In this document: positions 43,901 to 46,900 of the stretch, piece after piece
How the letters are laid out: each line of letters begins with the position of its first letter
Numbering within the stretch: the first letter of the stretch is position 1
Translations under genes and position numbers: made by a program
Assembly: GCA_040954595.2 (NCBI GenBank)
Contig: CM082586.2
Location: forward strand, 8,029,337-8,093,336
Reading direction: 5' to 3'
DNA length: 64,000 nt
Source of the DNA: Balanoglossus misakiensis
Taxonomy: Eukaryota; Animalia; Hemichordata
The notes under the pieces: generated by a model
Seen by the model: only the letters and a program-made list of their open reading frames with translations
The model's database searches: none
Told to the model about the DNA's origin: nothing

Positions 43901-46900
43901 ATAATGTTATTACTCACAGTGTACCTGTTATCAACATTGGACTACGATTGTCAGATTTGGAAAAGCATCATGCCTAGGACTCAACAAATTTTCCTTCATT
44001 ATATACTCTGCAAATTTCTAAACATTTTTGTACAAATGATAGCAAACATTCCCCGAAAGGTTCGGTTTCTGAAGTCTATCTCCAATTTCTGAGACTGTAG
44101 TAGCTGCATGTAACAAAAAAGTGAAATTACTGAAGTTTGAAGCATGATTTGAACGAATAAAATGTTAGCAGTGAGACGACAAGAATGTGTATGATAGAGA
44201 AATTCCACCCAGGAATTAAGTAAAGTTAGGCTTCGTGTGTGGATCTGCATTGCGGTTGATAGACATACACATTGGTAGATCAGTAGCAACAAAACACTCA
44301 ACCCAAATTCTAGTAAAAATGTATCACAACAGAAATGCAACTTTGCTGACGTGGTTGATTCTGGGCATACAAACTGTTTCTCATCTGTGGTACACTCACA
44401 TGTAGTTATTAAGCAAGGATAAATCTTGCTGTGAAGGGATTTATCAAGTACCAATGTGTATGGCTACAACCATTGCTAATCTCAGTAACTTGCATGCTTC
44501 CTGAATACTAATATTCAGTTTTACTAAATCTTGGAAGTGTCTGTTGATATTAATTAACTTAATTTATAAATGATAATTATATATATGTAAACACAATGTT
44601 TCATTGGTGTGTAATTTTTTTCACTGGTACCTAATCAGATATCACTTTTTTCTTCCTTTTTTTTTACATTTTTGGTGTTCTAAATTACTTCTTCCTGCTC
44701 CTATGTTTTGTTCATGTACTCACTCAATATGATTTTCAATTTTTGTATTTAAAAAATTGACTCTCAAACTTCAATATTTCATTCCTGATCGTTCATACAC
44801 AAACCGTCTTTCTCATTGTATATCATTCCTGTTGGTCTCCCACTTCTCACACACACACACACACACACACACACACTCACTCATATACTTACTCACTCAC
44901 TCACTCACTCACTCACTCACACACACACACTCACTCACTCACTCACTCACTCACTCACTCACTCACTCACACACACTCACTCACTCACTCACTCACTAAC
45001 TCACTCACATACACACTCACTCACTCACTCCCTCCCTCCCTCACTCACTCACTCACTCTTCCACACAAACACTTCTGTTCATTCTCAACACACATATCCC
45101 ACCCTGTCTCTCATGCTTGTTGAACGATTTTTACGGCTTAATCCATCTTTTTTACCATTCATTCGTTCACTTGTTCACTCATTGATTCATTCATTTTAAA
45201 TGTGTGGTGTTATTAGGGTGGTTCACCCACTCCATTTGATCGTAACTTGGGAACCAAATTAGCAGCCAAAGCAGTGCACTTTCTTCTCGAACATATTGAA
45301 CAAAATAAGACAGATGATGGTGAGTAAAGATGCTTGCGGTATTTGAATGTCAGTAAAGATGCAACTATCAGTGGAAATAGAATCGGTTTATGCCATGTTG
45401 AGAATGGTGGCGTTGAGACTGCATTGTAAATAGTACTGCAGTTCATCTCAGAAATTGTCCGTAGATGTTATTAATGAATTTGCAGTGTCTGTTTTGAATC
45501 AAGTTTTTGGCTACATACGGTTACTGTCAGACAAATTCAACTGTTTATTGGACTCTGGTACTCAACTCAATTTTTGAATTGTGTAAAGTTTGGTTGTATT
45601 ATTACTAGCCCTTTCAATTTTATTGGCAGTGTTTGACACAGTATGCACATTGGAGGGCAGCATTGCCACTCCTGTGAATAGTAGAATAAGCTTGTGATAT
45701 TGACAGCCTGTTTTTCTCCCCAGAAGAAAAGATAGAATAGTTTACCTATTGTTACATGGCAAAGAACAGATGATATTTGAACTGACAGTTGTTATTTATA
45801 CTGACATTCTGGTGGATAATCTAAGTATTATCTGAAAGTATTCATTTTACAGTCATGTCATTGATCTGAGGACACAACCATGTTTGCTAGTGATTGATTC
45901 ATTCCTTTATGGATATAGATTAAATATTTCAAATGTTGTGCTTGAAATGAAATGCTTGTATCAGAGAACCTTACCAAAGTAAACATTTGAAGATTTCACA
46001 ACATTATAGAGTGAAAATGTAGACAGTAATGTTTTGCGTGAAGAAGGGAAGATATCCGAAATGGTCCTCATATCATGTACGGTTGTGATGATGAATGCTC
46101 GCAGATCATGAAATCTGACATGCATGCACTCATATGCTGTCGGGAGAGCTGAACTGTGACCTTTGACCTTTGAACTCTAACACAACTATTCCTGGTCTTG
46201 AAGGGTGGTAACGCGTCACCCTTTGATAGATGCTATGGAACACGATTGGCTGGCCGATCTGTTTACTGGCTAATTGAGCAAATAGAGAAATATAAGCAAG
46301 CAGATGGTATGTATTGTGAAGCTCCATTGCACGTGTGCATTCACTTTTTTAATTCCCGATTTCATGGTAAGGTGTAATTAAGAAGCACAGACTAGATTCC
46401 ATGCAGTATTATTACCATTGCTTGGCTTGCTTATATTGCGCTATTCGGTAAATAACCTGTTGCTGGTGTTTTAACTCGCTAATCTCGATTTAACCCTTTC
46501 ACCACCATGGTTTGGTCCAAATCTATTGTTTTCTGTGGTAAGGTTGGACCTCTACACGAGAGACTGGGGGTGAAAGGGTTAAATCTGATCACCCTCTGGT
46601 GAGGTTGAAATCCATGTGTATGTACTGGCAGTCCATTTGATTGACAGGTGGGCTGTATCATGTGACCATGATTGGGTGAATATGTAGAAGACAAGGATAG
46701 GTCTTGTCAGGGTGGCTGTTGCTAGTTTCATTCATTTCATCCCCATGCCTGCAATCCTTAGACTCAGTCCATCCACTTGACATCAGGCTGCAGATAGAGG
46801 ATGACTACATAGGCGCATGTTGTAATTGTCTGATTGAAAAGAAGTCTTGAGGAAAAGATACCTGTATTTTAGCTGTCTTGATTGATTTACTAACTACTTT

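Follow-up and report, generated by a model that had tools for sequence, protein, structure and literature searches.

A predicted single-copy stem in the intron between two interchangeable phosphofructokinase exons of an acorn worm, with counterparts at two further exon pairs

Sequence comparison supports exons 20A and 20B of the ATP-dependent 6-phosphofructokinase (PFK) gene of the acorn worm Balanoglossus misakiensis as a duplicated, interchangeable exon pair, and the 5' half of the intron between them is predicted to form one long single-copy hairpin (stem 1), with counterparts in the introns separating two further duplicated pairs of the same gene. Positions are those of the window, i.e., the whole stretch of 64,000 nt that was analyzed, and the features described lie on its plus strand unless stated otherwise.

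The intron-rich PFK gene (13983-49712, the end being approximate) comprised 22 exon positions, which were placed by hand. Three of them were occupied by neighboring homologous exons that matched in length and phase, namely 14A (36359-36429) and 14B (37337-37407) of 71 nt apiece, 18A (41687-41748) and 18B (42227-42288) of 62 nt, and 20A (45217-45319) and 20B (46204-46306) of 103 nt. Nucleotide identity within the pairs was 60-66%, and 17 of 34 residues were identical between 20A and 20B. All eight A/B combinations yielded an open frame of 809 codons, and inclusion of both copies or of neither led to a premature stop in all six cases. Exon 20A, the upstream duplicate, has an acceptor with a weak pyrimidine tract and the donor GTGAGT. 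Exon 20B, alone among the gene's 24 acceptors, uses AAG, and its likely branch point is CTAAC at 46177-46181 (A at 46180, 23 nt from the acceptor), which is predicted to be unpaired. No convincing remnant homology between the duplicated introns was found in six tests, the best of which was equalled by 4 of 100 shuffles. Elsewhere in the window, intron 1 contained two similar copies of ~750 nt (~19080-19830 and 19900-20660), which are taken as a recent tandem duplication and hold 4 of the gene's TGCATG sites, and exon-like pieces of another gene were seen upstream of PFK at ~6000-10600 on the plus strand.

Exon 17 shared 95-96% identity with the PFK of Ptychodera flava, Glandiceps talaboti, and Saccoglossus kowalevskii; no other listed match exceeded 89%. 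All RefSeq isoforms of P. flava (7/7) and G. talaboti (6/6) had a single variant, of either A or B type, at every one of the three places, these 13 isoforms being annotation models from two relatives and not reads from B. misakiensis; isoform lengths were equal within each of the two species. The 20A-type variant was also present in proteins of P. flava, G. talaboti, and S. kowalevskii. An older Saccoglossus model, truncated and repetitive, joins 20A-type and 20B-type segments. Among listed isoforms, sea urchins, a sea star, amphioxus, molluscs, and nemerteans had one version at these places. The 22 PFK loci from metagenomes belonged to other animals or eukaryotes, none to a hemichordate, and in the 12 of 22 shown these exons were single-copy where covered. 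On human PFKM, the swapped segments correspond to residues ~448-471, 607-627, and 665-698, i.e., to the regulatory half, in which R471, E629, and HMQQ 661-664 presumably bind fructose-2,6-bisphosphate. In run X3, which is listed as DNA, one contig matched exon 20A (45215-45318) nearly end to end and continued elsewhere on both sides, and another began at the first base of exon 22 (from 49577). These contigs look like spliced sequence, a weak hint from one low-depth sample; the run had no cover over the bins with 14A, 14B, 18B, and 20B, which was given no weight.

The arms of stem 1 (45345-45407 and 45746-45809) are imperfect inverted repeats of about 62 bp that begin 25 nt past the 20A donor, and their predicted duplex has an energy of ~-60 kcal/mol. 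Its columns comprised 49 Watson-Crick pairs, 4 G.U, 1 A.C, 8 purine-purine, and 3 gaps; purine-purine mismatches numbered 7-8, against no pyrimidine-pyrimidine mismatch. All strings quoted for this intron in the earlier note were found where it placed them, and five of its six arm pairs were exact reverse complements, the sixth (45362-45372/45781-45791) containing one A.C mismatch. Its first long-range stem held up against shuffled sequence. In the predicted fold, the stem 1 helices had probabilities of 0.90-1.00 at each of 15, 25, and 37°C as well as when the flanking exons were included, and the duplex score of 52 exceeded the maximum of 34 among 40 shuffles. The whole intron folded at -237.3 kcal/mol (z -3.3 with 20 shuffles; z -4.1 with 12 shuffles). 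This signal was located in the 5' half, since 45320-45812 had a z of -4.2 and 45810-46203 one of -0.9 (40 shuffles each), the latter being no better than shuffles. The antisense strand of the stem-1 half folded equally well (z -4.0).

No target-site duplication was found in the flanks of stem 1, where it might have decayed, and no repeat pile-up was found at 80% likeness or more, as judged from contig depth in one sample, which is not a copy number. Bin depth at stem 1 was 222 and 77 in X1 and X2, respectively, like that of adjacent bins, and repeat bins reached 10^3-10^5. Of 868 sequence differences in these contigs, the 40 listed included none in the 20A-20B intron. A 29-nt look-alike of the 5' arm (86%, E 0.013) was detected at 29775-29803 in intron 8-9; its score was reached by none of 40 shuffles, and it is a hint of an old repeat behind that arm, although it has no good partner arm. 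Rfam covariance models gave no match within the 20A-20B intron at E <= 1, and two weak chance matches both lay outside it. The stem-arm pattern had no matches in viral contigs.

Folding energy did not set the intron apart. A fold control covered 35 plus-strand intron segments (including 4 of the 12 windows of intron 1), of which 21 were constitutive. A z of -3 or lower was obtained for 9 of the 35, the 20A-20B intron ranking sixth, and for 6 of the 21 constitutive segments, 4 of which surpassed it. The fold z-score check proposed in the earlier note thus came out against a special fold, constitutive introns folding comparably and mostly through transposon-type inverted repeats; because such repeats fold these introns as well or better, energy alone does not single out the 20A-20B intron. 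The whole-intron z was -1.9 for 14A-14B and -1.4 for 18A-18B. A strand-symmetric scan of the window identified 54 inverted repeats against 3.8 expected. Stem 1 came 13th among all of these and led the 16 of the alternative region (34468-49057), and 4 of 14 inverted repeats in constitutive PFK introns outscored it. Many of the others were transposon-like: they recurred within the window, bore flanking duplications (TTAA or 5 bp), or had depths of 10^3-10^5. One TTAA-flanked family of ~100 nt, at very high depth, occurred at 29526-29626, 46487-46585, 48625-48717, and ~52050-52140, and a decayed piece of it lay inside the 20A-20B intron (45967-46016). Further, the constitutive introns 8-9 and 9-10 contained near-perfect long hairpins (28818-28969, 30880-31014, and 32127-32417; scores 76-112) that were single-copy in the window.

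Long-range stems were present in all three inter-duplicate introns, as the earlier note had it, the modest z values of two of them notwithstanding: in addition to stem 1, single-copy stems were found in 14A-14B (36547-37146; arms 36547-36582/37109-37146) and in 18A-18B (41820-42098; arms 41820-41856/42053-42098). With post hoc thresholds on score (at least 34) and span (at least 250), and with no second copy in the window, such stems occurred in 3/3 inter-duplicate introns and in 0/6 constitutive introns of 400-750 nt (Fisher p 0.012); with a span of at least 200 instead, the constitutive count became 1/6 (p 0.048). The joint chance of three such stems by random placement was 1e-4 to 1e-2 over eight threshold sets, a control on the lenient side, since a complete insertion is more often contained in an entire intron than in an interval placed at random. 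The 14.6-kb alternative region had 7 single-copy long-span stems, and the remaining 49.4 kb had 5 (p 0.008; range 0.008-0.055 across four thresholds). The pattern was not confined to inter-duplicate introns, as 4 of these 7 stems lay in flanking introns: 14B-15 (37722-37994), 19-20A (43609-44146), and 20B-21 (47798-48199 and 48291-48762).

In the stem at 43609-44146, 6 G.U pairs stood against 1 A.C. Over the alternative-region stems together, the G.U:A.C ratio was 15:7, compared with 41:56 for the 44 remaining repeats (p 0.03, with strand-symmetric scoring) and 15:23 in constitutive PFK introns (p 0.06); the bias within the alternative-region set on its own was not significant (p 0.13). A lean of G.U over A.C would be expected if the transcribed strand were selected for pairing. 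An element at 44254 with a 5-bp flanking duplication was counted only at a span of at least 200 and added neither G.U nor A.C.

The 3' half of the 20A-20B intron behaved otherwise than the earlier note had proposed. For its two-stem model, with an Rbfox motif at the base of the second stem, no support was found in the register of that stem, in the accessibility of the motif, or in a pairing with the donor. The three helices of the proposed second stem had probabilities of ~0.000, and enforcing them cost 17 kcal/mol (ensemble energy from -257.6 to -240.5 kcal/mol). Another register was preferred in the predicted fold, namely 45837-45873/46064-46099 together with a hairpin at 46100-46158, and this second stem was itself not above shuffles, the best duplex of 45810-46203 being matched by 22 of 100. 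When the 3' part was shuffled 2000 times, chains of three 7-bp helices turned up in 1.0% of cases, and 1000 shuffles of the entire intron gave 5.4%, so the proposed chain is borderline.

The TGCATG at 46121-46126, the Rbfox consensus, is indeed present, 83 nt before 20B, but it is predicted to be paired in a hairpin (46114-46144) instead of accessible, with an opening cost of 7.0-7.4 kcal/mol, the highest among the gene's 14 plus-strand sites. TGCATG was not enriched (24 on the plus strand and 36 on the minus strand; the alternative region had 6, where 5.5 were expected). The distance of the 46121-46126 site from the 20A donor would be 337 nt after formation of stem 1, and 75 nt on addition of the second stem, itself not above chance. 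A 22-step shortest path on the minimum-energy structure was rejected as evidence of closeness, because the ends of an RNA lie near each other in any fold. The suggested pairing of ACTCAT (46128-46133) with the 20A donor GTGAGT had a probability of ~0. ACTCAT was also considered as the 20B branch point and rejected, since CTAAC at -23 fits better and AGs intervene.

The clearest regulatory mark is an AG-free zone before exon 20A, just outside the interval covered by the earlier note. An AG-free run of 577 nt reaches the 20A acceptor; no other run on either strand of the window is as long, the next being 194 nt. Its layout (44630-45214) is that of a distant branch point, with CTAAT at 44631-44635 (A at 44634) followed by a U-rich tract at 44645-44675 (87% pyrimidine). 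The zone contains a CA/CACT microsatellite, and YCAY occurred 19 times in the final 200 nt before 20A, compared with 1-8 times for 22 other exons tested. Given their composition, the chance that the two non-repeat parts would be AG-free was 0.011 and 0.044. From these features, the zone likely provides a distant branch point and a silencer for 20A. Exon 14A is preceded by an AG-free zone of 144 nt (36213-36356), the third longest on the plus strand, with CTAAT at 36240-36244 and then a pyrimidine tract; no such zone was found before 18A. Gooding et al. (PMC1431707) describe the distant-branch-point layout that the zone before 20A matches, give 590 nt for the AG exclusion zone of Fugu PTB exon 11, and state that chance may account for some half of the long zones or more. 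In the accessible portions of the literature cited here, the 577-nt zone is among the longest of its kind. In addition, the GT-rich start of intron 19 (43418-43447) was complementary to the CA repeat at 44849-44892, both being of low complexity, and a TGCATG lay 33 nt past the exon 19 donor.

With confidence evenly poised, we favor an explanation that leaves exon choice to proteins and the removal of mistakes to nonsense-mediated decay, with the stems as auxiliary RNA bridges. Splicing proteins would pick 20A through the branch point ~580 nt upstream and the CA/YCAY-rich zone, and would control 20B through its weak AAG acceptor; decay would then clear the products of double inclusion and double skipping. 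Stem 1 would loop out ~460 nt just past the 20A donor and bring downstream intronic elements, possibly UGCAUG, nearer to it, biasing the A/B ratio, and the stems of pairs 14 and 18 may have the same role. We are led to protein-controlled choice because the docking/selector and steric tests failed and because the zone before 20A fits the distant-branch-point layout. The equal folding of the antisense strand, the ubiquity of inverted repeats in the window, and the position of TGCATG, which stem 1 alone leaves 337 nt away and which is predicted to be buried, count against the role given to the stems. A stronger version, in which three exons lining the allosteric half of PFK were duplicated and each duplication independently gained one long hairpin within its intron, a common and conserved device for setting exon choice with no competition between docking sites and selectors, appears rather doubtful.

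The stems might instead be decayed foldback or miniature inverted-repeat transposons with no role in splicing, in which case proteins, the distant branch point, and decay would suffice. We judge this account, the main rival, to be somewhat on the improbable side. The density of inverted repeats (54 per 64 kb, many of them ending in TTAA or showing thousand-fold depth) is what it would lead one to expect, as are the equal folding of both strands, the look-alike of the 5' arm at 29775, and the piece of a TTAA-flanked element within the intron itself. It accords less well with stem 1, which lacks a target-site duplication and a repeat pile-up, with the missing partner arm at 29775, and with the contrast between the inter-duplicate and the similar-sized constitutive introns. 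Moreover, the decay of a DNA repeat should favor neither G.U over A.C nor purine-purine over pyrimidine-pyrimidine mismatches.

Two further accounts give structure the leading part. Folding of the whole intron could set the 20B branch point too near the 20A donor for the two exons to be joined, or hide that donor, as an exclusion mechanism shared by the three pairs. Stem 1, the preferred second stem, and the hairpin at 46100-46158 would together shrink the distance from donor to branch point from 860 to 76 nt, but this is still above the limit of <50-60 nt given in the available parts of PMC5740500 and PMC13762713, the second stem is not above chance, and the main stem alone leaves 266, 151, and 396 nt for pairs 14, 18, and 20, respectively. 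The donor is covered by a local hairpin with a probability of 0.93 when the intron is folded alone, which falls to 0.01 once exon 20A is included. This mechanism is unlikely. Competing docking-site and selector pairings across exons, with the registers of 45854-45879 acting as a switch that exposes or hides UGCAUG, are less probable still, and we give them very little credence. The segment can pair either with 46064-46082 or with 46081-46122, but the latter register, that of the earlier note, is 17 kcal/mol worse, and both fall within one intron and loop out no exon. None of nine intron-by-intron comparisons was in the top tenth of shuffles, sites of 10-15 nt being below detection, and 2 of 18 exon-by-intron comparisons were above it. 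The end of 20B (46279-46301) pairs with 46425-46447, a duplex reached by 2 of 100 shuffles in one of 27 comparisons; it loops out the 20B donor and could hide it or serve as an editing duplex.

If the stronger version is true, in which each duplication gained its own hairpin, up to eight regulatory variants of PFK, the main control enzyme of glycolysis, would come from one gene, compared with three genes in vertebrates. Should the stems be conserved, the control of mutually exclusive exons by RNA structure would reach to the hemichordates, a single gene offering three parallel examples. Should they be relics of transposons, the exon triplet alone remains, which RefSeq has already modelled.

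There is precedent for RNA bridges, for docking/selector systems, and for duplicated exons with intronic stems around them (PMC10790352, PMC11802352, PMC6071210). In the bridges of human ENAH and KIF21A, a long-range duplex within an intron lies beside an alternative exon, with UGCAUG further along and Rbfox2 involved (PMC10790352, in part). The 20A-20B intron resembles these systems in having such a predicted duplex and UGCAUG beyond it; it differs in that the motif is predicted to be paired and that the distance left by stem 1 alone exceeds 100 nt. Tandem duplicated exons with intronic stems also recall, as far as the available texts go, Dscam, srp, ATE1, and hymenopteran MRP, whose splicing is guided by several intronic stems (PMC6071210). 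Unlike the docking/selector pairing of Dscam, the bidirectional pairing of srp, and ATE1, the stems here lie within single introns, and no competing pairings across exons were found. Like miniature inverted-repeat transposons, which are abundant in the window, stem 1 has imperfect inverted arms at the two ends of a stretch of a few hundred bases; it differs from them in its lack of a target-site duplication and of a repeat pile-up.

The zone before 20A resembles those of PTB exon 11, alpha-tropomyosin exon 3, and OGDH 4a/4b in being long and AG-free and in having a branch-like motif and a pyrimidine tract at its 5' end. In contrast to OGDH, the zone precedes the upstream duplicate (20A and, more weakly, 14A), and the branch point is a prediction; because of that position, a steric block of A-B joining of the OGDH kind is impossible.

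Literature on the acorn-worm PFK triplet or its introns was absent among the matches listed, a search whose scope left out most subscription journals and supplements. In swapping exons to tune the same enzyme, the acorn worms resemble human PFKP, which does so near residue 539 (10.1101/292813, PMC7954323, PMC9741552, in their available parts), and the Pfk of insects. Isoforms of Drosophila and Tribolium swap a 32-residue segment of the catalytic half (P0160/P0163, P0169/P0172, P0066/P0097), and D. pseudoobscura has three isoforms of equal length that differ at this segment. The places differ: insects swap the equivalent of P. flava 258-290, PFKP the region near 539, and acorn worms three other segments. 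Exon swaps in PFK originated separately in vertebrates, insects, and acorn worms, threefold in the last, with a different exon each time.
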